From a virus, in the IMG/VR virus record IMGVR_UViG_3300035187_000563: a stretch of 30,541 nucleotides of DNA; one strand, given 5' to 3'. Shown piece after piece: positions 1 through 30,541 of the stretch. Position 1 is the stretch's first letter, and the number at the start of each line of letters is the position of its first letter. The position numbers and the translations under genes were made by a program. The notes beneath the pieces were generated by a model. It was not told the DNA's origin. It saw nothing but the letters and a program-made list of their open reading frames with translations, and did no database searches.

Positions 1-127
1 TCAGTAAGCAAATCAGCGAATTGGAAGCCAAATTTGAAGCCCGTTTGAGTGCATTGGAAGCCGAAAAGGTTGCATTGTCTGCACAGAACGAGGAACTATT
101 GGAAAAATTGGCCACCGAACCCGCCCC
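1..127. repeat. Terminal direct repeat, copy 1. It is identical to 30415..30541 and represents the circular-closure overlap.
   Basis: Base-by-base comparison shows 1..127 equals 30415..30541 exactly. The reading frame is preserved across the join, because the offset of 30414 is divisible by 3. Confidence 0.95.
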
Positions 128-12859: not shown

Positions 12860-13151
12860 AAAAACGGTGATTGAGTTGTTAACTCAATACTCCGACTTCA
12901 AAGACAACGACCAACAATTGGTGGCGTGGTTCTGGAAACTTGAAATGGAAGCCCACGGCTATCCCGCATCAAGCACCCAAACACAAACATTCTTTAAACT
13001 GATGGCATTTGGTAAACTAACATCCGCCGACACCATCACACGGGTTCGGAGGTTGGTGCAAGAAGAAACACCCGAATTGCGTGGCAAGAAGTACAACGAA
13101 CGCCAGGCCAAACAAGAACAAGTTAAAAAGGATTTAGGGTATGGCCAATAA
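12843..13151 (+). CDS. Hypothetical protein (102 aa)
   Basis: Operon orientation. It contains the motif TITRVRRLVQEETPELRG, which I recall seeing in small phage proteins of unknown function. Confidence 0.5.
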   Translation: MKMDIKKTVIELLTQYSDFKDNDQQLVAWFWKLEMEAHGYPASSTQTQTFFKLMAFGKLTSADTITRVRRLVQEETPELRGKKYNERQAKQEQVKKDLGYGQ

Positions 13152-13176
13152 ACAACAAACGGCAGTTGAGTGGTTA
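13141..13176. repeat. Diverged copy of the 39-bp gene-start repeat
   Basis: ATGGCCAATAAACAACAAACGGCAGTTGAGTGGTTA shares AATAAACAACAAACGGCAGT.GAGTGGTT with the copies at 13301 and 13522. Confidence 0.8.
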
Positions 13177-13293
13177 TTCAATGAATTTCAAATGATTAAT
13201 AGTAAATATCGTTTTGAAAGTATTGAATATTTTAAGGCAAGACAAGAGGCATTTGAAATAGCCATCAAGATGTACAATGAAACAGACAAATGA
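13141..13293 (+). CDS. Small paralog 1 of the TAVEWL family (50 aa)
   Basis: Hand translation gives MANKQQTAVEWLFNEF...ARQEAFEIAIKMYNETDK. The ORF falls below the track size cutoff. Confidence 0.45.
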   Translation: MANKQQTAVEWLFNEFQMINSKYRFESIEYFKARQEAFEIAIKMYNETDK

Positions 13294-13300
13294 AAAAACT

Positions 13301-13339
13301 ATGACAAACAATAAACAACAAACGGCAGTGGAGTGGTTG
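13301..13339. repeat. 39-bp gene-start repeat, copy 2
   Basis: ATGACAAACAATAAACAACAAACGGCAGTGGAGTGGTTG matches the copy at 13522..13560 at 38 of 39 positions. Confidence 0.9.
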
Positions 13340-13525
13340 TGGGAAATTGCATATAATCAAGAATTAACCGTTGAAGATTGGAAACAAGCCAAAGAAATGG
13401 AGAAGGAAAGAATTGAAACTGCATACAACAAAGGAACAGTTCATGGAATTGATTATCCTGAAAGTACATTACCAATAACTGGTGAACAATACTACAACGA
13501 AACCTACGGAGGAGGTGAGCAATGA
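13301..13525 (+). CDS. Small paralog 2 of the TAVEWL family (74 aa from ATG 13301)
   Basis: MTNNKQQTAVEWLWEIA...QAKEMEKERIETAYNKG. I chose the start by homology with paralog 3. The track start is 13277. Confidence 0.55.
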   Translation: MTNNKQQTAVEWLWEIAYNQELTVEDWKQAKEMEKERIETAYNKGTVHGIDYPESTLPITGEQYYNETYGGGEQ

Positions 13526-13560
13526 CAAACAATAAACAACAAACGGCAGTGGAATGGTTG
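13522..13560. repeat. 39-bp gene-start repeat, copy 3
   Basis: It differs from 13301..13339 by one base (GAG to GAA). Confidence 0.9.
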
Positions 13561-13770
13561 GCAGAACAAATGGAAATTTTACATTATGATTATTGGGCTG
13601 AACATATATCAAAAGATGAAAAAAATCAAAGGTTAAAGCAATTAAAAGAACAAGCCAAAGAAATGGAAGTTGCGGGAAGGGAAATGAGTTACGATGAAGG
13701 TTATGCCGAAGGTTACAAACGAGCATTGGAATTGATTGAATGGAAAATACAACAAGTAAAAACGAAATGA
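13522..13770 (+). CDS. Small paralog 3 of the TAVEWL family (82 aa)
   Basis: MTNNKQQTAVEWLAEQ...EQAKEMEVAGREMSYDEGYAEGY. Confidence 0.55.
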   Translation: MTNNKQQTAVEWLAEQMEILHYDYWAEHISKDEKNQRLKQLKEQAKEMEVAGREMSYDEGYAEGYKRALELIEWKIQQVKTK

Positions 13771-13955
13771 ACAAATACGACACCATGAAAACCGCATTAG
13801 AACAATTCATCGAATGGTTGGAACAAAACCACCCAACGGCCGTGCCACCACCAGAAACCAAAGAACATTTTTTTATGAAAGAAAAGATTGACCAACAAAT
13901 GGCGTACAACGCTGGATTCACAAAAGCCAAAACAATTTATTTGGATGGAGAATGA
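13767..13955 (+). CDS. Small paralog 4, a diverged member of the TAVEWL family (62 aa from ATG 13767)
   Basis: ATGA overlap upstream. ALEQFIEWLEQ...MKEKIDQQMAYNAGF shows the same two-motif layout as the other three. Confidence 0.5.
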   Translation: MNKYDTMKTALEQFIEWLEQNHPTAVPPPETKEHFFMKEKIDQQMAYNAGFTKAKTIYLDGE

Positions 13956-14305
13956 AGCACCTTGAAAGCCGTTTACAAATCAACTGCGTTAAGTGGTTTC
14001 GGTTGGCACATCGCCAATATGCAAACCATTTGATTCATGTTCCCAACGGAGGATCACGGGATTTGCGAACGGCCCAAAGGTTAAAAGCCGAGGGAGTATT
14101 GCCAGGGGTGGCCGACCTTGTGTTATTCATCCCCACACAAACACACCACGGGTTATTCATCGAACTCAAAGTCAAACCAAACAAACAATCAGTACATCAA
14201 AAAGAATGGGAAAAATTGGTTACCGCGATGAATTATCATTATGTGGTGGTATATTCGTTTGAGGATTTCAAATTACAAATCGAAGCATACATTGGTAACA
14301 CTTGA
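13952..14305 (+). CDS. VRR-NUC domain nuclease (PD-(D/E)xK)
   Basis: ESRLQINCVKWFR...HVPNGGSR...AQRLKAEGVLPGVADLVLF...GLFIELKVKPNKQSVHQKEW matches the VRR-NUC pattern, including D...ELK. Confidence 0.8.
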   Translation: MKHLESRLQINCVKWFRLAHRQYANHLIHVPNGGSRDLRTAQRLKAEGVLPGVADLVLFIPTQTHHGLFIELKVKPNKQSVHQKEWEKLVTAMNYHYVVVYSFEDFKLQIEAYIGNT

Positions 14306-14900
14306 AGCCATAGCCAAACGCCACATTGAATGGATCAAGATTGCCAAGTACATAGGTGCAAGCAACGATGAAGCGGATGACATGGTACAATCAATGTATT
14401 TGAAGTTGGCGGAAATCCAATTGGCAGAGGGAAATTTTGTGAGGTTGACCAATTACAACGGAACCATCAACACCATCTATTTGTTTAAGATGCTACACAA
14501 TGCGTTTATGGACATCAAACGGGCATCAAACAAGACAATACCACACCAAGACCAATTTAACCCCGTAGAAAGCCCCGAAATGGCTGAAATGGCACATTTG
14601 GACTTGATGGGTGAAGTAAAAAAGGCAATTGATGAACTGCGAGATTATGACCAGATGTTATTGGAACTACATTTTGTGTACGGACATTCAATGAGGGATA
14701 TTGAAAAACGCACGGGAATACCAACACATTCGGTTTTTAACTCAATCAAAAACGCCAAACAACACATCAAACAACGAACACAAACAAAATACAAAATATA
14801 TGCAGAAGAAAAGCGACACACGGAAACAATTTACCGAATCACGACCATCAATCGGGTTGGGGGATACGATTCAGAAGGTAACGAAAGCCACGGGGATTGA
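14241..14900 (+). CDS. Phage-encoded ECF-like sigma-70 family factor (regions 2 and 4)
   Basis: Region 2-like segments: ADDMVQSMYLKL and YLFKMLHNAFMDIKR. Region 4 HTH: LRDYDQMLLELHFVYGHSMRDIEKRTGIPTHSVFNSIKNAKQHIKQ. The start is uncertain (ATG 14241 or TTG 14292). The 3' tail overlaps the next gene. Confidence 0.7.
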   Translation: MWWYIRLRISNYKSKHTLVTLEAIAKRHIEWIKIAKYIGASNDEADDMVQSMYLKLAEIQLAEGNFVRLTNYNGTINTIYLFKMLHNAFMDIKRASNKTIPHQDQFNPVESPEMAEMAHLDLMGEVKKAIDELRDYDQMLLELHFVYGHSMRDIEKRTGIPTHSVFNSIKNAKQHIKQRTQTKYKIYAEEKRHTETIYRITTINRVGGYDSEGNESHGD

Positions 14901-15379: not shown

Positions 15380-15525
15380 TGATTTTACGCGATGATTACC
15401 ATTACACATTCCGAGCAATTGGCGAACGGATGGGGGTATCGGAATCGGTGGCGTTTAGGTTATACGAAAAGGGAATCAACAATGAAAAAACATACAAAAA
15501 TTTATTTGAATTATTTTGGGTATGA
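15337..15525 (+). CDS. Small HTH protein (sigma region-4 / LuxR-like), 62 aa from ATG 15337
   Basis: TAKQYAVMILRDDYHYTFRAIGERMGVSESVAFRLYEKG fits an HTH pattern. The start is uncertain (15289, 15328 or 15337). Confidence 0.4.
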   Translation: MADRSKTTAKQYAVMILRDDYHYTFRAIGERMGVSESVAFRLYEKGINNEKTYKNLFELFWV

Positions 15526-15733
15526 CACATCCGATTTTATCCCGTGCGAAGTGTGTGGAAGCCAGGCGGTTGACATCCACCACATTGAATGCCGTGGCAT
15601 GGGTGGAAGCAAGGAAGCCGATAAAATTGAAAACCTACAAGCCCTTTGCAGAAAATGCCACATCCAATTTGGGGATCAAAAACAACACAAAGATTTTTTA
15701 ATTATCACACACCAAATAAAAATGAACAAATGA
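15482..15733 (+). CDS. HNH endonuclease (83 aa from ATG 15482)
   Basis: CEVCGSQAVDIHHIECRGMGGSKEADKIENLQALCRKCH is a canonical HNH/zinc motif set. Confidence 0.8.
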   Translation: MKKHTKIYLNYFGYDTSDFIPCEVCGSQAVDIHHIECRGMGGSKEADKIENLQALCRKCHIQFGDQKQHKDFLIITHQIKMNK

Positions 15734-16305
15734 TACAAATTGTTAAAACAAAAGACATTATTGCCAATGAGAATAATCCCAGGGTGATAAAAGATGACAA
15801 ATTCCGTAAATTGGTACAATCAATTAAGGACTTCCCACAAATGTTGAACCTCCGCCCGATAGTCGTGAATGATGAAATGGTAGTTCTTGGCGGCAATATG
15901 CGTTTACGGGCCGTGCAAGAAGTTGGGTTGAAGGAAGTAGCCATCATTAAGGCATCCGACCTAACCGAAGAACAACAAAAAGAGTTCATCATTAAAGACA
16001 ATGTGGGCTTCGGAGAATGGGATTGGGATGTGTTGGCTAATGAATGGGAACCAGAATTGTTGAGTGAATGGGGGTTGGATGTTTGGCAACAACCCGTGGA
16101 GGTCGACTATTCACTTTTGGATGAAGAAGATTTATCCGACGAACTTGCGGACATGGCCGATGGTGTAAAGAAAGCCATCCAAATTGAATTTGAACCCGAC
16201 CATTACGATGAAGCCACCGAATTGGTAAAGTTTTGGCGGGAACGCGGGGCGTATGTTGGTTACATGATCATGCAATACCTCAAAGAAGAAAAAGATAAGT
16301 TATGA
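15730..16305 (+). CDS. ParB N-terminal (ParB/Srx-like nuclease) domain protein with an acidic Trp-rich C-terminal region
   Basis: IIANENNPRVIKDDKFRKLVQSI...VVLGGNMRLRAVQEVG matches the NPR and GxxRxxA boxes. ATGA overlaps at both ends. There is no fused methyltransferase domain. Confidence 0.7.
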   Translation: MIQIVKTKDIIANENNPRVIKDDKFRKLVQSIKDFPQMLNLRPIVVNDEMVVLGGNMRLRAVQEVGLKEVAIIKASDLTEEQQKEFIIKDNVGFGEWDWDVLANEWEPELLSEWGLDVWQQPVEVDYSLLDEEDLSDELADMADGVKKAIQIEFEPDHYDEATELVKFWRERGAYVGYMIMQYLKEEKDKL

Positions 16306-17006
16306 AAATCTTTTTGATGTATTATGACCGATACAAAGAAGCAACAACATCTAAAATGTTGCAAACTGAACACATCGTGTTATGCCACAACAATGCAGAC
16401 AAATTCACTTGCATCGGCCCACAAGGTGAATTGATACAAACTAACGAACCCAAAGGCATTCAAAACAATTTCAATTATGGCTTACGCATGTTGAACCCTG
16501 GCGAGTGGGGCATATTCATGAGTGACGATTGTGTTGGGGCAAAAAAAATACAGAACGGCAAGTTCGTGGATTGTTCAGTTATGGAATCATTGAACGAATT
16601 ATTGGCAATCATTCCGAAGGCCGACAAAATGGGAGTGAAATTGATTGGCCTAAATTCAACTGGGAATCCATTTTATGCAAAAACAAAGTATTCTAAATAT
16701 GGATTAGTTGATGGGCGTTGTTTTGCTATCAAAAGAACGGAGTTTGAATTCCATCCAATCATTAATACGATCCCCGATTATTACGCTTCGGCTTATCATT
16801 TGAATAAATACGGGGGCAATTTAATTTTGAATTACACCTTCATAGATTTCAAGAGATACGAAAAAGGAGGGTTGGGAAGTGAAGAAGATAGAATACATGA
16901 CAAAATGAAAGATGTCAATATCATGTTGTCAACATTCCCGAAGAATGTCCAACTGAAAGACAAACCAGGTCAACCAAAAAATTCACACATAATAATCAAA
17001 CGATGA
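16302..17006 (+). CDS. GT-A-like glycosyltransferase candidate (partner of the TET/JBP dioxygenase)
   Basis: The ORF is 234 aa. It has an N-terminal beta-1 strand (KIFLMYYDRY) and NNFNYGLRMLNPGEWGIFMSDDC, which is a DxD-like SDD in the usual GT-A context. It is translationally coupled to both neighbours. Confidence 0.4.
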   Translation: MKIFLMYYDRYKEATTSKMLQTEHIVLCHNNADKFTCIGPQGELIQTNEPKGIQNNFNYGLRMLNPGEWGIFMSDDCVGAKKIQNGKFVDCSVMESLNELLAIIPKADKMGVKLIGLNSTGNPFYAKTKYSKYGLVDGRCFAIKRTEFEFHPIINTIPDYYASAYHLNKYGGNLILNYTFIDFKRYEKGGLGSEEDRIHDKMKDVNIMLSTFPKNVQLKDKPGQPKNSHIIIKR

Positions 17007-17803
17007 AACGCGTAGATTTAACCCTACAACCCCATGAAGCAAAAATCGGTCAAGACTGCCCGTATTTAGCCCCAAACATTACCGAAGATTGCATTTTCTA
17101 TGAGAATGGTGAAGCCATTGGGTTTTATATTAAGTCAATGCCAGAAAGAGCAGCGAAGTTAGCGAACCTGGCCAACATGGAATTCAATAGTAAAAATGTA
17201 CCAAAAACATATTTGGACAGAATGGAAACTGTGAAATTGTCAAAAGAGGGGATGAAGCGTTCCGATGCCCGTAAAATTGGCGTTAGTCAAATGTCGGTGA
17301 TTTTGGGGGGTGTCCCACCAAAGCCAGTTATGCGTAGACCATATCCAACCATTTCATCAGTTCATCAAGTGAAGTCGGCACAAACCTACATTAAAGCAAT
17401 GCTAATGTTGGCAAAGGAAAGCGAATCAATTATGCACGATATACTACCAGAACAATACGAACGGCAAAAAAAACTATTTGAGCAAGTGCCCGACCAATGG
17501 AAGTTCGCCAATCTTTTCACATCATCTATTGCCAATTACAATATATCAGCACCTTTCCATCGTGATACTGGTAACATTGTCGGGGCGGTGAATGTGATTA
17601 TCACAAAGCGTTTGAACGCCAAAGGTGGCAATCTATATGTTCCCGATTACGGGGCGGTCATGGATAGCGCAGATAACTCAATGTTGGTTTACCCCGCATG
17701 GAAAAATGTGCATGGAGTTACACCAATTATCCCAACGCATGAAGGTGGGTACCGCAATAGTTTGGTGTTTTACCCCCTCAAAGCATTCGTGGGATTAAAA
17801 TAA
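17003..17803 (+). CDS. TET/JBP-family 2-oxoglutarate/Fe(II) dioxygenase (nucleic-acid base hydroxylase)
   Basis: The ORF is 266 aa. It has H186-R-D188 (17558-17566, FHRDTGN), a distal H237 (VHGVTP, 17711-17713) and R251-N-S-L-V-F-Y (from 17753). These correspond to the metazoan TET motifs HRD...LHATTP...RISLVFYQH. Confidence 0.8.
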   Translation: MKRVDLTLQPHEAKIGQDCPYLAPNITEDCIFYENGEAIGFYIKSMPERAAKLANLANMEFNSKNVPKTYLDRMETVKLSKEGMKRSDARKIGVSQMSVILGGVPPKPVMRRPYPTISSVHQVKSAQTYIKAMLMLAKESESIMHDILPEQYERQKKLFEQVPDQWKFANLFTSSIANYNISAPFHRDTGNIVGAVNVIITKRLNAKGGNLYVPDYGAVMDSADNSMLVYPAWKNVHGVTPIIPTHEGGYRNSLVFYPLKAFVGLK

Positions 17804-18480: not shown

Positions 18481-18833
18481 TGGCCTATAAAACAAACGAA
18501 TTGGAACGGCTATCATTGGAAGCCATAGAAAAATACAAGTTGTTTTTTATTGAGGATGTAGTCGCTTATTTGCCGTGTGATAAAAGCACATTTTACGCCC
18601 ATAAACTCCACGAATCCAACGCAATAAAAGAGGCATTGTTAACTGTGAAGACCAACATCAAAGTATCTATGCGTTCCAAATGGTATTTGAGCGAGCAACC
18701 CACATTGCAATTGGCGTTAATGAAATTGATAAGTAGCGAAGAAGAACTCCGCAAACTATCCATGAGCCACAATGTGTTGGAGGAAAAAGAGAAACCCATT
18801 TTTAACGGAATCAATTTAGATGTAGACAAATGA
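18480..18833 (+). CDS. Candidate terminase small subunit (HTH protein)
   Basis: The ORF is 117 aa with a TAATG overlap upstream. An HTH-like segment (VVAYLPCDKSTFYAHKLHESNAIKEAL) is followed by KVSMRSKWY...PTLQLALMKL. It lies in the terminase operon, two genes upstream of TerL. Confidence 0.45.
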   Translation: MAYKTNELERLSLEAIEKYKLFFIEDVVAYLPCDKSTFYAHKLHESNAIKEALLTVKTNIKVSMRSKWYLSEQPTLQLALMKLISSEEELRKLSMSHNVLEEKEKPIFNGINLDVDK

Positions 18834-19447
18834 AATTTGTGAAAAATACACGATACTATCGTGGCGTGGTTTATGAATGGAACTTGCCCACGGGTAGCAC
18901 TTGCCCATTTGCGATGGAGTGTAAAGTAACTGTGGATCGCATCACGGGGAAATTTGACATTCATCGGGGGCAATACAAATGCTATGCAGCGGGGCCAGAA
19001 CGATTCCCAGGTGTACGGGAACATCGATGGAAAAACTTTGAATACACAAAAAATGGTGGTATCCCACAAATTCCAAAAGGGTGTAAAGCAATTCGCATCC
19101 ATGCGGCGGGGGATTTTTACAACCAAGATTATTTTGATATGTGGTTGGAGGTTGCACGGGAAAACCCACAAGTTGAGTTTTGGGCTTACACCAAATCATT
19201 GAATTATTGGATTAAAAGGTTGGGTGAAATACCTAACAATTTAACATTGACCGCATCACGGGGGGGGAGGTTGGATTGTTTGATTGACCAACACGAACTG
19301 AAAAATGTAACTATATTCAAATCCAAATACGAGGTACCCGAACAAATGCCGATTGATACAAACGATGATTGGGCAAGGACACCAAATGTCAATTTTGCTT
19401 TGATTGATAATTACGCCAAAGAAACACCCCAAATTTCATTATTGTAA
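18830..19447 (+). CDS. GP88-like Cys-motif protein of unknown function
   Basis: LPTGSTCPFAMEC...GQYKCYAAGPERFPGV resembles the Gene-product-88 family signature (C-P..s..C...CYA) as I recall it. It is coupled by overlaps to both terminase genes. Confidence 0.4.
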   Translation: MKFVKNTRYYRGVVYEWNLPTGSTCPFAMECKVTVDRITGKFDIHRGQYKCYAAGPERFPGVREHRWKNFEYTKNGGIPQIPKGCKAIRIHAAGDFYNQDYFDMWLEVARENPQVEFWAYTKSLNYWIKRLGEIPNNLTLTASRGGRLDCLIDQHELKNVTIFKSKYEVPEQMPIDTNDDWARTPNVNFALIDNYAKETPQISLL

Positions 19448-20604
19448 TGTTGCAGAAAACAACGGCCCAGGTCAAGATTAGTCGGTTACGCAAACGGGTT
19501 AGGATTGTAAGGGGTGGAACAAGTAGTTCAAAAACCTTTTCAATTATCCCCTTGCTAATTGATTACGCGGTTAAAAACCCAAAGGTAGAAATCAGCATCG
19601 TATCGGAAACCATCCCCCACCTACGGAGGGGTGCTATTCGTGACTTCCTTAAAATCATGGAAATGGTCGGAATGTTTGATCCGTTGAAATGGAACAAATC
19701 TTCATGGACTTATTCATTCAGCAACGATAGTTACATTGAATTCTTTTCAGCAGACCAACCCCAAAAGTTGAGGGGTGCAAGGCGTGATGTGTTATTTGTA
19801 AACGAGTGCAACAACATTGATTGGGAATCATACTATCAAATGGCAATCCGTACCCGTAAATTCATTTATTTGGATTACAACCCCGTGGCGGAATTTTGGG
19901 TGGATAGTGAATTGGTAAACGATGCGGATGCGGAAATGATTGTACTAACCTACAAAGACAATGAAGCGTTGGACAAATCAATCGTTAACGAAATTGAAAA
20001 GGCACGGGATAGGGCGGAAACATCAAACTATTGGGCTAATTGGTGGCGGGTGTATGGGCTTGGTGAGATTGGAAACTTACAAGGAGTTATATTCAGCAAC
20101 TGGCAAACCATCGATAAAATACCAGAGGATGCAAGATTGGTTGGTTGTGGTGTGGATTTCGGTTACACAAACGACCCCACGGCGATTGTTGCCGTTTATG
20201 AATACAATGGTCAACGAATCGTTGATGAGGTCGCATATCGCACGGGAATGCTCAATTCGGACATTGCAAGGGCATTACCCACCCATGTTCCCGTTTATGC
20301 GGATAGTGCCGAACCAAAATCAATTGATGAGATACGGAGGTATGGAATAAGAATCAAGGGCGTAACCAAGGGCAAAGATTCAATTAACTACGGAATTCAA
20401 ATCATGCAATCCCAATCTTATTTGGTTACATCCACATCAACAAACCTAATTAAAGAATTACGGAATTATTGTTGGGATAGTGATGCCCAGGGGCGAACGA
20501 TGAACACACCAATTGGAACGGATCACGGGATTGATTCATGGCGTTATCATGAGATGATGGCACTTGGAATCAAATCCAATTACGGAAACTACGATATTCG
20601 TTAA
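19447..20604 (+). CDS. terL: Terminase large subunit (PBSX/XtmB, Terminase_3-like)
   Basis: Walker A-like RGGTSSSKT, Walker B RRDVLFVNE, and nuclease-domain motifs (GVDFGYTNDPTAIV, YADSAEPKSIDE). The ORF is 385 aa. Confidence 0.85.
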   Translation: MLQKTTAQVKISRLRKRVRIVRGGTSSSKTFSIIPLLIDYAVKNPKVEISIVSETIPHLRRGAIRDFLKIMEMVGMFDPLKWNKSSWTYSFSNDSYIEFFSADQPQKLRGARRDVLFVNECNNIDWESYYQMAIRTRKFIYLDYNPVAEFWVDSELVNDADAEMIVLTYKDNEALDKSIVNEIEKARDRAETSNYWANWWRVYGLGEIGNLQGVIFSNWQTIDKIPEDARLVGCGVDFGYTNDPTAIVAVYEYNGQRIVDEVAYRTGMLNSDIARALPTHVPVYADSAEPKSIDEIRRYGIRIKGVTKGKDSINYGIQIMQSQSYLVTSTSTNLIKELRNYCWDSDAQGRTMNTPIGTDHGIDSWRYHEMMALGIKSNYGNYDIR

Positions 20605-20635
20605 TTGTTTATTTCGTGTGGATTTTGTATATTTG
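20605..20635 (+). promoter_or_regulatory. Promoter-like element D, at the head of the late/structural unit
   Basis: TTG (20605-20607), then a 20-nt spacer, then TATATTTG (20628-20635), an exact match to the Bacteroidota -7 consensus TAnnTTTG. The ATG at 20644 follows after 8 nt. Confidence 0.5.
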
Positions 20636-20643
20636 CGTTTGAT

Positions 20644-21087
20644 ATGACAAGCCATTACCAAGAAATACACAACTTAAAACAAGAAATAAAACGACTGCGA
20701 TTGTTGGTAGTTGAAAACAAGATGGCCCATGACCGCGAAGTTCGGTTGCTGAAACAAGAAATTGTCAAACCCAAAACGGACATCAACGATAACCCCACCA
20801 CATGGGGTGAAGTGTTACGGGTTATTTGTGAGGTAATGGATATGACTCCCGACCAAATCATCACCAAGTCAAGGAAACGCAAACCAATGTATGCCCGTCA
20901 TATGTTCAACCACATTTGCCGAAAAAGATTGAACATGACTTTCATGGAGATTGGCAACATTTCACACCTTGACCATTCCACCATTATTTCATCGGTTCGG
21001 GAATTTACGGATATTTTGGTAACCGATAAGGAGATGCAAAGGTATCACGCCCAGGTTCACACGATCCTTCACGAAAGGTTAGTATAA
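20644..21087 (+). CDS. DnaA domain IV-like (Bac_DnaA_C) DNA-binding protein with an N-terminal coiled coil
   Basis: ITKSRKRKPMYARHMFNHICRKRLNMTFMEIGNISHLDHSTIISSVREF aligns with the DnaA C-terminal pattern (R..v.aRq.amyL.r.lt..s..eIG..fg.rDHsTV.ha...i). I chose ATG 20644 because the track's TTG start lies inside the promoter element. Confidence 0.65.
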   Translation: MTSHYQEIHNLKQEIKRLRLLVVENKMAHDREVRLLKQEIVKPKTDINDNPTTWGEVLRVICEVMDMTPDQIITKSRKRKPMYARHMFNHICRKRLNMTFMEIGNISHLDHSTIISSVREFTDILVTDKEMQRYHAQVHTILHERLV

Positions 21088-22875: not shown

Positions 22876-23993
22876 CATTCAACGAACAACCACAAGACAT
22901 AGCGGGGTGTTATTCCCCATTAATGTACCAATTTTATGATGCGTTATACACCGCAGATTCATTCTATTATCAATGCGATGTGTATGTGTGGAGTGGCACA
23001 ACGACAATCCCAGGTTCACCCAATTGGACAATTAACCGCAAACCCGACCAATACGGAAGTGGCCGTGGATGGATTGATATTCACAAATTGGTGCAACAAG
23101 AAGTGGCACAAAACTTTTTGGATAACCCAACATACAAACCAAACATCGGCAATGGTGCAAAACGGGTTGCGGTCAAAGTTCGTGGGGCATACAAAGTTGC
23201 GGGTGTTGATACCTATACGGCATATGTAACATCAAATGTAATTTTGGTAACCGCGGGATACACCTACACGGCCCAGGGGTTCAATGTGGGCTATCCAACC
23301 AAATATGTGTTCACCGATAAAACCCAAGTGACATTAACCACGGCAACGCCATCCGCGTATTTGTGGTATGATGCTTCCGTAATTACTTCAATTACTTGTG
23401 GGAGTGCCACAGTAACCCCAAACGCGGTTGGTGGTAGTAGTTCAAACACAATTCAAGGAATCGAAATAAAGCAACTAATGACCGCTGGGGGTGTGTGGGG
23501 TACGGATGCCAACATTACCTTCGTTAAAACGGGTGATGATGTGGTTATACCCGTTGATTTTGTGTGTGAGAATAAGTATGGCCAACAAGATGTGTTGTTC
23601 CTAAACAAATACGGGGTGTATGATTCGTTTTTGTTCAATGGTGTTTTCCGTTCAACCTTTGGGGTGAGCAAAGAAAAGTACGAACAACCGATATTCAAAC
23701 AAACCAATATGGCCGAATCGTGGACATACGGAGTGCCAATTACCACAAGTTATTTGGTGAATTCCGTGCAAACGATGACTGTGAACACCGATTGGATTAG
23801 TCAAAACGATGTTGATATTGTTGAGCAAATTTTTTATTCAACGAACCTTTTGGTATTGGATAGTGCCGAGGTATTATCAGCCCGTATCGTTGATACCACA
23901 TTTGAAAAGAAAACCCGTGTGAATGAAAAGTTGATTTTGTACACCATCCAAATGGAATACAACCAACCGAAGATTAATAAAATGGTACGATAA
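22872..23993 (+). CDS. Tail/baseplate structural protein (373 aa)
   Basis: It is a strand-rich protein coupled by overlaps (ATGA upstream, TAATG downstream) to the 906-aa tail protein. Confidence 0.5.
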   Translation: MTFNEQPQDIAGCYSPLMYQFYDALYTADSFYYQCDVYVWSGTTTIPGSPNWTINRKPDQYGSGRGWIDIHKLVQQEVAQNFLDNPTYKPNIGNGAKRVAVKVRGAYKVAGVDTYTAYVTSNVILVTAGYTYTAQGFNVGYPTKYVFTDKTQVTLTTATPSAYLWYDASVITSITCGSATVTPNAVGGSSSNTIQGIEIKQLMTAGGVWGTDANITFVKTGDDVVIPVDFVCENKYGQQDVLFLNKYGVYDSFLFNGVFRSTFGVSKEKYEQPIFKQTNMAESWTYGVPITTSYLVNSVQTMTVNTDWISQNDVDIVEQIFYSTNLLVLDSAEVLSARIVDTTFEKKTRVNEKLILYTIQMEYNQPKINKMVR

Positions 23994-26713
23994 TGGCGAT
24001 TAGATTTTCAATAACCATTGACGGAACGCCCGTTGACCTATTCAACGATGAATCCGTACCATTAACAAGGCAATTAAAGGATTTAACAAACCTTGCCACC
24101 ATTTGGACGGATTACACCAAGGATTTCCAAATACCCGCATCCGCTACCAACAACGCCATTTTTAATTCATGGTTTGATGAAAATGTGAAGTTGGGTGCGT
24201 GGAATCCTAATTTGGGAAAAGATGCTACCATATTCATTAACGGATTGCCCGTGTTTGAAGGGCGTGTTGAATTGATTGGGTGCAAATTCAAGGATGGGTT
24301 GCCACAATTGTACAACATCATTTTTTATGGCACGACCAAAAAATTATTGGATGATTGGGGTGAAACATTGATGAACGAAGTGGATTGGTCGAATTACAAT
24401 CACATCGCCAATTACACGAATGTATTGACTTCATGGGATCAAGGTTTATTGGATGACACATGGAATCAAATTACCACCCAATGGCAGAACATTACCACCA
24501 CATGGAATCAAGCCCCATATAGCGGTGATATTTTATGGCCGATTGCAGATTACAACCAACAATGGAGATATTCCACATTAACGGGGGTGAACGGAAACAT
24601 CTTAAAACCAAGGGGTGTTGAAGTGGATGATTTACGCCCCGCAATTCGTTTACGGGCGATGCTCACAACAGTGTTTGAGGAAATTGGGGTTACATTGACG
24701 GGTTCGTTTTTATCACGCCCCGAAATGGATGATTTGTATGTATTGCCAATGCAAACGGCGGGGCCGTTGTACGATCCCGAATATGTTTTACCTGGAACAT
24801 TTGATGCAAGTGTATCGGCTTATACTTATGTAACCCGCACAACGGGGGCGGTTAATTACACGAAAATCATTTACCCAACAATCGGTGCAAACCCATCGGG
24901 GAATTACAACACATCAACGGGTATTTACACGCCAAATCGGTCGGGTAATTACACATTCCGTATTGGTATTAATGTCAATTTCATTTCGGTGTTGAATACA
25001 TCCATCAGTTTTGTTGTGATGGTCAATGGCCGAGTAATGTATACTTATGTACAACAAACGAACACAGTTGGAACGACATATTATTCAAGTAATTTGGCAT
25101 TGAATACGGGCGATGAAGTAACGATTGGTTACAACACATTTTCCACAATCGCCGCTGCGAGTATTTTAACATTTGATTGTAGCAAAGCCCCACAAGGGAT
25201 TAATGGCAATTTGGTCAACATGGTGGATGCGATGCCACAAAAACCCATCAAAGATTTTGTCAATGGGGTGTTGCAAGGTTTCAACTGCATATTGGTTCCC
25301 ATTGGTGAAAAGCAAATTGAAATTCACAATTTGGCCGATTGGTTGGCATTGGGAACAACAAAGAATTGGTCACCATATGTGGATGTGAAGGACATTCAAC
25401 ACGATAAAATGCCAATACCACGCCATGTGAGTATGGAACACCAAGAATCAACATGCTTGGCAAATGCGTACTACAAACAAATCAACAAACGGGAATATGG
25501 ATCAATTAAGTTCATGCCGTTAATTGATTACCCAACGGAGGAATTTAACATTGAAACCCCATTCCATGTGATTGCCCCCCAGGCGATGAACCAAGTCAAT
25601 TTGAATGGGCAAATAGTACGCAAAACGGAATTGAACATCCCCGTGTTTTTGGATACCGATTTCAAACCCGTTCAACAAGATTACACCTTGTTTTACTACG
25701 GAGGCAAACAATCGGTTTCCGATGTGTGGTATTTCAATAATGTTGTGCAATATGTGATGCCGTTGATGACACCATATTCCGATTACCCAACCATTTCAAA
25801 TAGTTATTCAAATGCGTTTGGATTGGAATTGTCATTGCGTGGTGATGCACCCACAAAAACGATGTATGATTTGTATTGGACGGAATACCTTACCCGTATG
25901 TATTCAACGCAATCAAGGGTGGTTAAAATGACCGCCGTGTTGCCCGTGGGTGAGTGGTTGAACCTTGAATTGAACGACACCATCGCCATTTCATCCAATT
26001 ACTACAAAATCCAATCCATCCAATACGATATGTTAACGGAGATTGCGAACCTGGAATTGGTAACATACCCCGATGTGGAAATCATGAGGTTTACCACCAC
26101 GGGGCAACGGCCCGATTTTACCAACCCCGTTGAAGTACCCGCTGGAAGAACATATTTGCGGGATTATTCGGTTGCAAAAGGTATCATGAATTCCTACAAG
26201 TTCAACGGCCAAGATTATTTGGACACCAACCAAGATGAGGACTACAACCAAAATAGCGTGTCGACATTGGTTCATCAAGTTGAGAACTTGCAATCCATCG
26301 TGCAGTTTAACCAAATCACGATGTACAACAACAACCCCGCAACCCGCACAACAGATTCAACCTTGTGGGATACCATCCCTATGGAGGAACAAGAATCAAT
26401 CGGGTATGTGCAGAACATCACGGCCACATTGAACCCATCAAAATATGTATGCACCGATGGTGGGCAATACAAGTTCACGGCGATGGCTTCGTTTGGTCAA
26501 AGTGGAAACAAATCAATTGAATATGCAATCCAAATCAACGGCATCAACACAACGGCATATGCTGCCACGGATTCAAATTTCCATAGTATTCAAATTGACA
26601 CCATATTGGATTTGGCCCCCACGGATGAAGTAACATTTGTTTGGAAAATGTACACGGGTGGTTCGCACACCATCACCATTTTGAAATCCAACTTTTTAAT
26701 ACTCAAAAAATGA
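23993..26713 (+). CDS. Large tail-tip / baseplate hub protein (906 aa)
   Basis: It is the largest ORF in the window. The N-terminus (FSITIDGTPVDLFNDESVPLTRQLKDL...DYTKDFQIPASATNNAIF) is typical of distal tail proteins as I recall them. It contains the heptad repeat TWNQITT/QWQNITT/TWNQAPY. Confidence 0.55.
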   Translation: MAIRFSITIDGTPVDLFNDESVPLTRQLKDLTNLATIWTDYTKDFQIPASATNNAIFNSWFDENVKLGAWNPNLGKDATIFINGLPVFEGRVELIGCKFKDGLPQLYNIIFYGTTKKLLDDWGETLMNEVDWSNYNHIANYTNVLTSWDQGLLDDTWNQITTQWQNITTTWNQAPYSGDILWPIADYNQQWRYSTLTGVNGNILKPRGVEVDDLRPAIRLRAMLTTVFEEIGVTLTGSFLSRPEMDDLYVLPMQTAGPLYDPEYVLPGTFDASVSAYTYVTRTTGAVNYTKIIYPTIGANPSGNYNTSTGIYTPNRSGNYTFRIGINVNFISVLNTSISFVVMVNGRVMYTYVQQTNTVGTTYYSSNLALNTGDEVTIGYNTFSTIAAASILTFDCSKAPQGINGNLVNMVDAMPQKPIKDFVNGVLQGFNCILVPIGEKQIEIHNLADWLALGTTKNWSPYVDVKDIQHDKMPIPRHVSMEHQESTCLANAYYKQINKREYGSIKFMPLIDYPTEEFNIETPFHVIAPQAMNQVNLNGQIVRKTELNIPVFLDTDFKPVQQDYTLFYYGGKQSVSDVWYFNNVVQYVMPLMTPYSDYPTISNSYSNAFGLELSLRGDAPTKTMYDLYWTEYLTRMYSTQSRVVKMTAVLPVGEWLNLELNDTIAISSNYYKIQSIQYDMLTEIANLELVTYPDVEIMRFTTTGQRPDFTNPVEVPAGRTYLRDYSVAKGIMNSYKFNGQDYLDTNQDEDYNQNSVSTLVHQVENLQSIVQFNQITMYNNNPATRTTDSTLWDTIPMEEQESIGYVQNITATLNPSKYVCTDGGQYKFTAMASFGQSGNKSIEYAIQINGINTTAYAATDSNFHSIQIDTILDLAPTDEVTFVWKMYTGGSHTITILKSNFLILKK

Positions 26714-30014: not shown

Positions 30015-30541
30015 ATGAGTATGAACGCAGAAACAATTTTGGATCGCATTATGGTAAAACTCGGCATGGCCGAAGAACCAAAGGCGGTTGAATTGGCACA
30101 AGTAAAAACCGAAGATGGCCAAGCCATTTTTGAAGCCGATACCTTCGCAGTTGGTGAAGCGGTTTTTATTGTAACCGAGGATGGAAAAATCGCCGCACCC
30201 GCTGGTGAATTCGCATTGGAAGATGGTAACATCATTGAAGTTGACGAAAACGGAACAATCGTTGAAATCAGCAAAAAAGAAGCCGAGATTGAAGAAGAAG
30301 AAATCGTTGAGGAAGTTGAAGCCCAAAACGATATCATGAAAGACGAAATCAAGGAAGAAATGATGAAGCCAAAACGCACCGTGAAAAGCAAAACCGAAAT
30401 GGAAGAATCTTATTTCAGTAAGCAAATCAGCGAATTGGAAGCCAAATTTGAAGCCCGTTTGAGTGCATTGGAAGCCGAAAAGGTTGCATTGTCTGCACAG
30501 AACGAGGAACTATTGGAAAAATTGGCCACCGAACCCGCCCC
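30015..30541 (+). CDS. Scaffolding-like protein, 5' portion. It runs off the window end and continues at 128..242 after the repeat.
   Basis: Hand translation from ATG 30015 gives MSMNAETILDRIMVKLG..., then an acidic stretch (EAEIEEEEIVEEVEAQ), then a coiled coil. There is no stop before the window end. The frame is continuous with 21..242. Confidence 0.65.
   Translation, partial: MSMNAETILDRIMVKLGMAEEPKAVELAQVKTEDGQAIFEADTFAVGEAVFIVTEDGKIAAPAGEFALEDGNIIEVDENGTIVEISKKEAEIEEEEIVEEVEAQNDIMKDEIKEEMMKPKRTVKSKTEMEESYFSKQISELEAKFEARLSALEAEKVALSAQNEELLEKLATEPA
30415..30541. repeat. Terminal direct repeat, copy 2 (identical to 1..127)
   Basis: Exact 127/127 match on direct comparison. Confidence 0.95.

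Follow-up and report, generated by a model that had tools for sequence, protein, structure and literature searches.

Introduction

Thymine dioxygenases of phages, both ParB-dependent and ParB-independent, have been shown in vivo and in vitro (bioRxiv 10.1101/2025.08.14.668559; PMC13229309), and a phage TET enzyme that oxidises thymine has been reported (Burke et al. 2021, PMC8256090). The dioxygenase 5mYOX176 produces about 25-35% 5-hydroxymethyluracil (5hmU) in E. coli only when ParB176 is present, and on double-stranded DNA in vitro it needs ParB as well; the ParB partners of this subclass have nucleotide-binding and C-terminal domains and no DNA-binding domain (PMC13229309). Here we describe a locus at positions 15730-17803 of the IMG/VR virus record IMGVR_UViG_3300035187_000563, in which genes for a short ParB-like protein, a glycosyltransferase (GT) and a TET/JBP-family Fe(II)/2-oxoglutarate (2OG) dioxygenase (5mYOX) follow one another on the plus strand. 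The whole analysed stretch, 30,541 bp long with 41% G+C, is called the window below. By analogy with the systems just named, the function of the locus is probably ParB-assisted conversion of thymine to 5hmU in DNA, followed by glycosylation to a product resembling base J.

In a published survey of 5mYOX pathways, GTs are found in 31%, ParB in 27%, terminases in 19% and cytosine-C5 methyltransferases (C5-MTs, or C5-MTases) in 6%; 5mYOXs without a neighbouring C5-MT were inferred to be thymine dioxygenases (PMC13229309). Pyle et al. (10.1101/2023.12.21.572611) had likewise inferred for most GT-linked 5mYOXs without a methyltransferase that they make 5hmU. Phage DNA GT-A enzymes are related to trypanosome JGT and to TarP, which is the top PDB match for the experimentally proven ones (10.1101/2023.12.21.572611). 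The Pfam family name "TET-Associated Glycosyltransferase" (TAGT) reflects an earlier prediction of such a DNA-sugar step. Phage TETs active on 5-methylcytosine (5mC), which form clades A and B, always adjoin their C5-MT (PMC8256090). The original prediction, made from the letters of the window, had taken a nearby C5-MT to be general for characterised phage TET loci; that is true of clades A and B and does not hold beyond them. It had also presented hydroxylation and glycosylation independent of a methyltransferase as previously undescribed. That claim falls away: ParB-dependent thymine dioxygenases had already been shown (PMC13229309) and the sugar step had been anticipated (10.1101/2023.12.21.572611). 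The window cassette is a new example of a pathway type shown experimentally in 2025-2026, not a new type.

Results

The dioxygenase

The last gene of the cassette (17003..17803, plus strand) encodes a protein of 266 aa. Over residues 119-257 it scores 40.0 bits with Pfam model Tet_JBP (PF12851; E-value 2.9e-10), for which the gathering score is 34.9, and it matches phrog_6059 at 6.5e-54. The residues H186, R187, D188 and H237 are present, as is R251 followed by NSLVFY. In 41 homologues of 67-86% identity, H186, D188, H237 and R251 are invariant and R187 is at least 90% conserved. A family-profile alignment sets these motifs opposite HRD, HATTP and RISLVFYQH of TET2. By that correspondence H186, D188 and H237 are the predicted iron ligands and R251 the predicted 2OG-binding arginine, the same HxD...H triad and arginine that had been picked out from the sequence beforehand.

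Searches of PDB sequences, whether with single proteins or with family profiles, returned nothing significant for the dioxygenase or the GT, and fold comparison alone was informative. The AlphaFold2 (AF2) model of the dioxygenase has a predicted local distance difference test score (pLDDT) of 73, falling below 50 in the region around the HxD motif. When this model was compared with PDB by Foldseek, the top 20 matches were all CcTet, CMD1, TET2 or NgTET1 (prob 0.98-1.0; TMq up to 0.65 for TET2), TET/JBP-family dioxygenases of nucleic acids, and other 2OG oxygenases ranked only below them. Neither Pfam nor Foldseek placed the protein in a 2OG dioxygenase family that acts on something other than nucleic acids. 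By profile match and by model, the gene at 17003-17803 encodes a TET/JBP (5mYOX) dioxygenase, the identity first proposed for it.

The N-terminal 122 residues gave no Pfam match. Just ahead of the Tet_JBP region, residues 104-118 (window 17312-17356), PPKPVMRRPYPTISS, are nearly invariant in homologues, yet are modelled as disordered (pLDDT <50). This segment may be a loop that contacts DNA or the ParB partner, inside the region that the literature calls a variable insertion. At the other end, the protein stops 15 residues past R251; in Tonitrus gp3, a ParB-linked homologue from an actinophage, about 47 residues more follow.

The ParB-like protein

The first gene of the cassette (15730..16305, plus strand) encodes a short ParB-like protein of 191 aa. 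Pfam ParB_N matches residues 3-90 at 3.8e-6 (27.3 bits, cut-off 26.3); PHROGs 498, 940 and 620 match at 1e-27 to 1e-23, over the N-terminal part only; and among PDB sequences the best match is the ParB of Myxococcus xanthus (7bnk, E 1.3e-3). The protein consists of an N-terminal ParB/Srx nucleotide-binding domain (about residues 1-100), an acidic linker (residues 101-145, with 15 D/E and 0 K/R) and, at the C-terminus, a conserved segment of some 45 residues (AIQIEFEP...). Across 64 orthologues, conservation is at least 95% for N16-P17-R18, G55-N56-M57-R58, A61 and the C-terminal motif, and at least 80% for S31.

In sequence, this succession of nucleotide-binding domain, linker and C-terminal segment resembles the layout described for 5mYOX-associated ParBs, which have a C-terminal dimerisation domain and no DNA-binding domain. 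The four residues mutated in ParB176 (N14, R16, S29 and R56) are kept in the window protein as N16, R18, S31 and R58, at a constant offset of +2, so that residues of the CTP site are conserved. No helix-turn-helix (HTH) DNA-binding domain and no methylase domain were found in the protein by Pfam, and the isolated C-terminal segment, searched with a ribbon-helix-helix fold in mind, gave no Pfam match either. Because it has no HTH domain, the protein would not be a parS-binding partition protein. By analogy it is the predicted activator or DNA loader of the dioxygenase. The original prediction had described a ParB-like gene without the methylase domain and had suggested a targeting or loading role; the first point is borne out by the Pfam scan, and the second matches published experiments on homologous ParB/5mYOX pairs (PMC13229309).

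The glycosyltransferase

Between these two genes lies one (16302..17006, plus strand) for a 234-aa protein, assigned by its AF2 model with Foldseek and by profile comparison to the GT-A-fold glycosyltransferases of the TET-associated (TAGT, JGT-like) kind. The model is confident (pLDDT 92.5). In PDB its Foldseek matches are WrtF and TarP (2.4e-5), RmlT and GpgS, with E-values from 2e-5 to 2e-4. In BFVD they include several proteins named "TET-Associated Glycosyltransferase", with E-values from 1e-15 to 1e-10 and TMq up to 0.78, and also, at E 1.1e-11, a T-even-type beta-glucosyl-HMC-alpha-glucosyltransferase. The fold similarity shown here is that to TarP and to viral TAGT proteins. The GT-A-like identity suggested earlier for the middle gene agrees with these matches.

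In sequence the protein is more remote. It matches phrog_842 over its full length at E 0.002, and gives no Pfam match at E-values up to 0.01, TAGT model PF20691 included. PF20691 does match three of the 44 family members (best E 1.8e-5), and hhalign joins the family profile to that of a TAGT-positive sister family at 95.2% probability (E 2.9e-8). Since the window GT lies below the Pfam threshold while its family profile matches the sister family at 95.2%, the family is, as judged by profiles, a divergent TAGT relative rather than a threshold-level member. Residues R10, S74-D75-D76 (DxD-like) and D159-Y160 are invariant in the 44 homologues. They are compatible with the motif pattern R...DDD...EDY/F described by Pyle et al. 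for phage DNA GT-A enzymes (SDD standing for DDD and PDY for EDY), compared as a pattern only. The gene adjoins the TET/JBP gene through an ATGA overlap with the dioxygenase start at 17003, and the enzyme is predicted to add a sugar to 5hmU.

Conserved gene order around an exchangeable slot

The dioxygenase family is large. It comprises 3,553 protein clusters at E <= 1e-5 and occurs in at least 584 stretches of IMG/VR; the 120 clusters listed encode proteins of 259-283 aa, all with PF12851, many of them on contigs of 28-37 kb. Among cultured phages the best relatives, 48.5% identical, come from the Prochlorococcus siphoviruses MED4-184, P-HS2 and MED4-117, and actinophage enzymes are 25-32% identical. 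For comparison of gene content, 84 loci holding a dioxygenase of this family were used (L003-L085 plus cyanophage MED4-184). ParB and dioxygenase could both be placed in 73 related loci, and in all of these the order was ParB, variable slot, dioxygenase, usually with a terminase next. The arrangement is the same in MED4-184, with a ParB 35% and a dioxygenase 48.5% identical to those of the window; the gene between them there has no relation to the window GT and, by homology to L019, encodes an FkbM-type methyltransferase.

Two public annotations at the MED4-184 locus (L001; NC_020847.1: 15790-17914) appear to be wrong. What is listed as a "DNA methylase" is homologous to ParB and has no methylase domain. 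It had been considered as a real methylase that might supply 5mC and was rejected in that role, as a full-length homologue of the window ParB. The "queuine tRNA-ribosyltransferase" is the TET/JBP dioxygenase, and the same wrong name is carried by PHROG 6059 and by many mycobacteriophage records.

GT-A/TAGT relatives, belonging to several GT-A subfamilies, occupy the slot in 49 of the 73 loci. In 14 loci an FkbM methyltransferase is found instead, and in eight a 301-aa orphan protein (L004:9099-10004; also L005, L009, L028, L030, L034, L037 and L038). Multi-gene sets occur in a few loci each: a GT with a sulfotransferase (PF03567; L039:9435-9998), and a GATase-like protein, a GNAT protein, an unknown protein and a P-loop-like protein together (L050:4899-7189). 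Two further contents were seen in one locus each, namely a GT with a 598-aa nucleotidyltransferase-like protein (L022:4127-5923), and an amino acid:DNA transferase (PF18724) with a weak FAD-oxidoreductase-like match and a P-loop-like protein (L058:330-1858).

The boundaries of the slot are sharp. When close relatives are aligned to the window by blastn, homology ends exactly at 16305 and restarts at 17003 in L007, L009, L015, L016, L019, L021 and L023, and in L027 it breaks within a few bases of the same positions, while the flanks of the swapped slot are 77-99% nucleotide-identical among relatives. The ParB gene of L007 is 99% nucleotide-identical to that of the window, but a different GT-A gene fills its slot; in L009 the slot holds the 301-aa orphan, and in L019 (3051-3743), L021, L023 and L027 the FkbM methyltransferase. 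Exchange is not confined to the slot, and the dioxygenase gene has also been reshuffled within the module: in L010 and L012 the ParB gene is 99% and the GT gene 97% identical to the window at the nucleotide level and the dioxygenase gene just 82%, and in L006 the GT gene is 99% and the dioxygenase gene 100% identical and the ParB gene just 89%.

This mosaicism, seen by sequence comparison, suggests that within a single phage lineage the final DNA adduct diversifies rapidly. It is quite possible, if somewhat short of probable, that the slot between ParB and dioxygenase is a plug-and-play diversification hotspot, at which non-homologous tailoring genes are exchanged at start/stop overlaps. The 301-aa protein has no match in Pfam, PHROGs, NCBIfam or PDB sequences, and its family is a candidate for a new enzyme acting on 5hmU in DNA.

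Absence of a methyltransferase and the likely substrate

An exact match of 127 nt between the two ends of the window (1..127 = 30415-30541) forms a direct terminal repeat, and the window is therefore consistent with a complete phage genome of about 30.4 kb; the contig had rightly been called closed. A Pfam scan of open reading frames (ORFs) of at least 60 aa, chosen greedily by length and leaving out any, mostly antisense, that shared >90 nt with a longer ORF, found no methyltransferase in the window genome, and PHROGs found none among its early and packaging genes. A six-frame regular-expression search of the window found no PCQ and no S-adenosylmethionine (SAM) motif I. Strings resembling DPPY/NPPY occur in antisense frames only, where the longest open stretch, 188 aa, lies opposite the portal gene. 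Nor did tblastn find anything in the window with a C5-MTase from a relative or with the FkbM methyltransferase as queries. The original prediction had seen no methyltransferase motifs in any ORF, and by profiles, six-frame motifs and tblastn alike this reading stands; in particular, no methyltransferase domain came to light in a hypothetical ORF. Among the comparison loci, a C5-MTase relative is present in two of the 84, several kb from the module and never adjacent to it.

The contents of the slot bear on the substrate. In orthologous loci, with dioxygenases 66-67% identical to that of the window, the same slot carries an amino acid:DNA transferase (PF18724, 1.9e-10) and a GNAT acetyltransferase. 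Matches to P-loop NTPase and GATase-like families in orthologous slots are weak, below Pfam cut-offs, and concern gene types listed for such pathways. The Rhodococcus phage Tonitrus combines ParB and TET with aGPT-Pplase2 and a kinase. Because the slots of relatives hold enzymes of thymidine hypermodification, the context points to 5hmU, and hence to thymine, as the handle that dioxygenases of this family create; and because thymine already bears a methyl group, no cytosine methyltransferase would be needed. Three substrates had been offered for the enzyme at the outset: 5mC installed by the host, thymine in the manner of JBP with glycosylation of the resulting 5hmU, or some other target. The second is the best supported and the other two are less so; activity of the window dioxygenase on host-installed 5mC is unlikely.

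Comparison with described pathways

The closest described system is that of 5mYOX176 and ParB176 (clade C1). Like it, the window has a TET/JBP dioxygenase with a short ParB of its own, no neighbouring C5-MT and a position near the terminase genes; orthologous loci of the window also carry the amino acid:DNA transferase, P-loop-like and GATase-like genes of clade C1 pathways. The tailoring partner in the window differs from those emphasised for the ParB-dependent subclass, being a GT-A glycosyltransferase.

With the base J pathway of trypanosomatids (JBP1/2 and JGT) the locus shares the predicted route from thymine to 5hmU and on to glycosylation by a GT-A enzyme of the TAGT family, and the lack of a methyltransferase. 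The phage proteins are, however, very distant from the trypanosomatid ones, and where JBP1 has a J-binding domain and JBP2 a SWI2/SNF2 domain, the window has a ParB partner.

The cytosine clusters that combine C5-MT, TET and GT (PMC8256090; 10.1101/2023.12.21.572611) resemble the window in using 5mYOX and GT-A/GT-B superfamily enzymes post-replicatively. The window GT shares with their GT-A enzymes a TarP-like/JGT-like fold, and its conserved residues are compatible with their motif pattern R...D(D)D...DY. Those clusters, by contrast, contain and need an adjacent C5-MT and yield glycans based on 5-hydroxymethylcytosine (5hmC), whereas the window genome is without a methyltransferase.

Phages SP10, PhiW-14, ViI and M6, which use a 5-hmdU kinase and aGPT-Pplase, have 5hmU as an intermediate in common with the pathway predicted here, and in relatives of the window the place taken here by the GT is filled by genes for an amino acid:DNA transferase and P-loop-like proteins. 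In phages of the SP10 kind, 5hmU is formed at the nucleotide level, ahead of replication. In the window, 5hmU would instead arise on the DNA polymer through the dioxygenase, and the GT replaces the pair of kinase and transferase.

Discussion

Proposed pathway

The module would carry out post-replicative hypermodification of thymine in a tailed phage of about 30 kb. With Fe(II), 2OG and O2, the 5mYOX would add a hydroxyl to the thymine methyl group in double-stranded phage DNA, so that 5hmU is formed. The short ParB encoded two genes upstream would be the cognate activator or DNA-loading partner of this dioxygenase. The GT-A enzyme would then move a sugar from a nucleotide-sugar to the new hydroxyl, so forming a base-J-like glycosyl-5hmU, probably confined to certain sequence contexts. 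The likely benefit is that phage DNA would be shielded from host nucleases. The analysis itself shows the identities of the genes, their catalytic residues and folds, the conserved gene order and the lack of a methyltransferase; the thymine substrate, the dependence on ParB, the sugar acceptor and the biological role are proposed from homology, from context and from published work on relatives.

Several points weigh against this pathway. The dioxygenase model is only moderately confident, least so around the HxD motif, and the GT falls below every Pfam threshold, in a family where TAGT is matched by 3 of 44 members. An extended C-terminus has been said to be exclusive to ParB-dependent 5mYOXs and required by them (PMC13229309), and the 266-aa window enzyme, judged by proxy against Tonitrus gp3, is without one. 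The same study emphasised GTs for the ParB-independent clade, and kinases, GATases and amino acid:DNA transferases for the ParB-dependent one, and for many of its ParB/5mYOX pairs the yield of 5hmU in E. coli was below 5% (PMC13229309). Membership of the window enzyme in clade C1 or C2 is proposed from context and strict synteny, and the window phage and its close relatives are known here from their genes. Finally, characterised phage thymine dioxygenases also oxidise 5mC in vitro, and two relatives hold a C5-MTase elsewhere, some kb from the module.

Alternative explanations

The last two of these facts would fit a different chemistry, in which the dioxygenase would be a TET-like 5mC oxidase acting on host-methylated phage DNA and the GT would glycosylate 5hmC, as in the cytosine pathways of Burke 2021 and Pyle 2024. 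Its catalytic motifs are indeed those of TET enzymes, and 5hmC is a demonstrated substrate of phage GT-A enzymes of this kind (10.1101/2023.12.21.572611). Host methylation, however, would cover sparse sites only, the closed genome encodes no methyltransferase, and the C5-MTase relative found in just two loci never adjoins the module. The published 5mC-active TETs of clades A and B do adjoin a C5-MT, whereas the ParB-linked ones are thymine dioxygenases, and the amino acid:DNA transferase of orthologous slots is specific to thymidine. Oxidation of 5mC as the role of this enzyme is therefore quite improbable. We consider it equally improbable that dioxygenase and ParB make 5hmU while the GT-A enzyme acts off DNA, on a cell-wall polymer as TarP does or on a phage protein, which would leave plain or further oxidised 5hmU as the DNA product. 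The best PDB matches, TarP, RmlT and WrtF, are enzymes of wall teichoic acid and other non-DNA acceptors, which with the sub-threshold TAGT score would fit such a role; but TarP is also the top PDB match for proven phage DNA GT-A enzymes, and the closest viral structural matches of the window protein are TET-associated GTs and the T-even HMC glucosyltransferase. The position of the gene between ParB and dioxygenase, with ATGA overlaps on both sides, argues for a DNA acceptor too, as do the other enzymes acting on hydroxymethyl groups that relatives carry in the slot: FkbM methyltransferase, sulfotransferase, and an amino acid:DNA transferase accompanied by a weak match to P-loop NTPases.

A further alternative concerns biological role rather than chemistry and is compatible with thymine hydroxylation and glycosylation as proposed above. 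The module might mark a few specific sites as a packaging or regulatory signal, with ParB directing modification near the terminase step, rather than lay down an anti-restriction coat over the whole genome. The module is directly upstream of the terminase genes in most relatives; Burke et al. (PMC8256090) cite a proposal by Aravind and co-workers that ParB directs modification during packaging; and O'Toole et al. (PMC13229309) report sequence-selective, partial modification and discuss epigenetic-like roles. The window ParB, on the other hand, has no recognisable sequence-specific DNA-binding domain, no parS-like repeats were seen in the genome, and rapid swapping of tailoring enzymes fits an arms race with host defences better than it fits a conserved recognition signal. 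We regard site marking as unlikely.

Genome context

Nearly all genes of the window are on the plus strand. The start/stop overlaps of sequence ATGA that link the cassette are at 15730, 16302 and 17003, exactly where they had been noted before; they join four genes, however, rather than three, the overlap at 15730 being that of the stop of an upstream HNH endonuclease gene with the ParB start, followed by ParB/GT and GT/dioxygenase. The chaining supports co-translation of the cassette genes. Because ATGA overlaps occur at 10 of 46 gene junctions in the genome, it is not unusual there or remarkable in itself, and as a trait specific to the cassette it was rejected in favour of a genome-wide habit. 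The HNH gene (15392..15733, plus strand; 113 aa) matches Pfam HNH (PF01844) at 4.8e-7 and many HNH PHROGs. In relatives it is found upstream of ParB or downstream of the dioxygenase, and because its position varies the endonuclease is probably associated with the cassette rather than a core part of it.

The packaging genes follow closely on the cassette in the window, and likewise in most relatives. The large terminase subunit (19447..20604, plus strand) was identified by Pfam Terminase_3 and Terminase_3C, and related loci likewise have it downstream of the dioxygenase. In the window, the dioxygenase region and the large terminase gene are separated by a GP88-family gene (18830-19447; PF17338 2e-30, phrog_1392). 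This gene behaves as a clean present/absent cassette, missing at this place in L006-L010, L014, L016 and L017 and kept in L012 and L013, and in some relatives it adjoins the modification module. Also near the module are genes for a sigma-70 region-4-like protein (14241-14900), a DnaA C-terminal HTH protein (20605-21087), directly after the large terminase, and a VRR-NUC nuclease (13952-14305). Scans for sigma-70 promoters and intrinsic terminators around the cassette did no better than on shuffled sequence; no parS-like or other repeats tied to the module were found in the window genome, and no tRNA genes in the window.

Two features farther away may be recorded. At 13141-13955 three small genes in tandem (50, 82 and 82 aa) encode proteins with a common N-terminal motif, KQQTAVEWL, which in the DNA shows up as a direct repeat of 39 nt (at 13138, 13301 and 13522). 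The small gene that comes next, the fourth, has a loosely similar IEWL motif. A tail protein of 906 aa (23993-26713) contains a C1q-like domain (PF00386, 1.1e-6), presumably a receptor-binding module.

The phage had been labelled a Bacteroidota phage, an assignment that its relatives leave unproven. The only cultured capsid relatives are phages of Flavobacteriaceae, the best of them, a Nonlabens phage, at 24% identity. Dioxygenase relatives in genome records (L086-L095) are all on short contigs binned into metagenome-assembled genomes (MAGs), from both Bacteroidota and Proteobacteria; these are probably contigs of phages caught up in the binning, and so no reliable guide to the host.

Significance

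With the window, the class of phage thymine dioxygenases associated with ParB, defined only recently, gains a closed 30-kb genome from a very abundant lineage. A ParB and a GT are combined in it with a short dioxygenase lacking the C-terminal extension, which puts the generality of the published hallmarks of ParB dependence to the test. The locus also exposes mis-annotations in public records, where the dioxygenase is named "queuine tRNA-ribosyltransferase" and the ParB "DNA methylase".

Should 5hmU be the common handle for all slot genes, a single phage lineage would keep a population-level repertoire of DNA hypermodifications. Such a repertoire would resemble serotype switching, presumably driven by host defences that recognise modified DNA, and the 301-aa orphan would be a new DNA-modifying enzyme. 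The swapping suggests a natural toolbox of enzymes for 5hmU-containing DNA, the 301-aa family among them, of relevance to the arms race between phage and host and to the enzymatic labelling of DNA.

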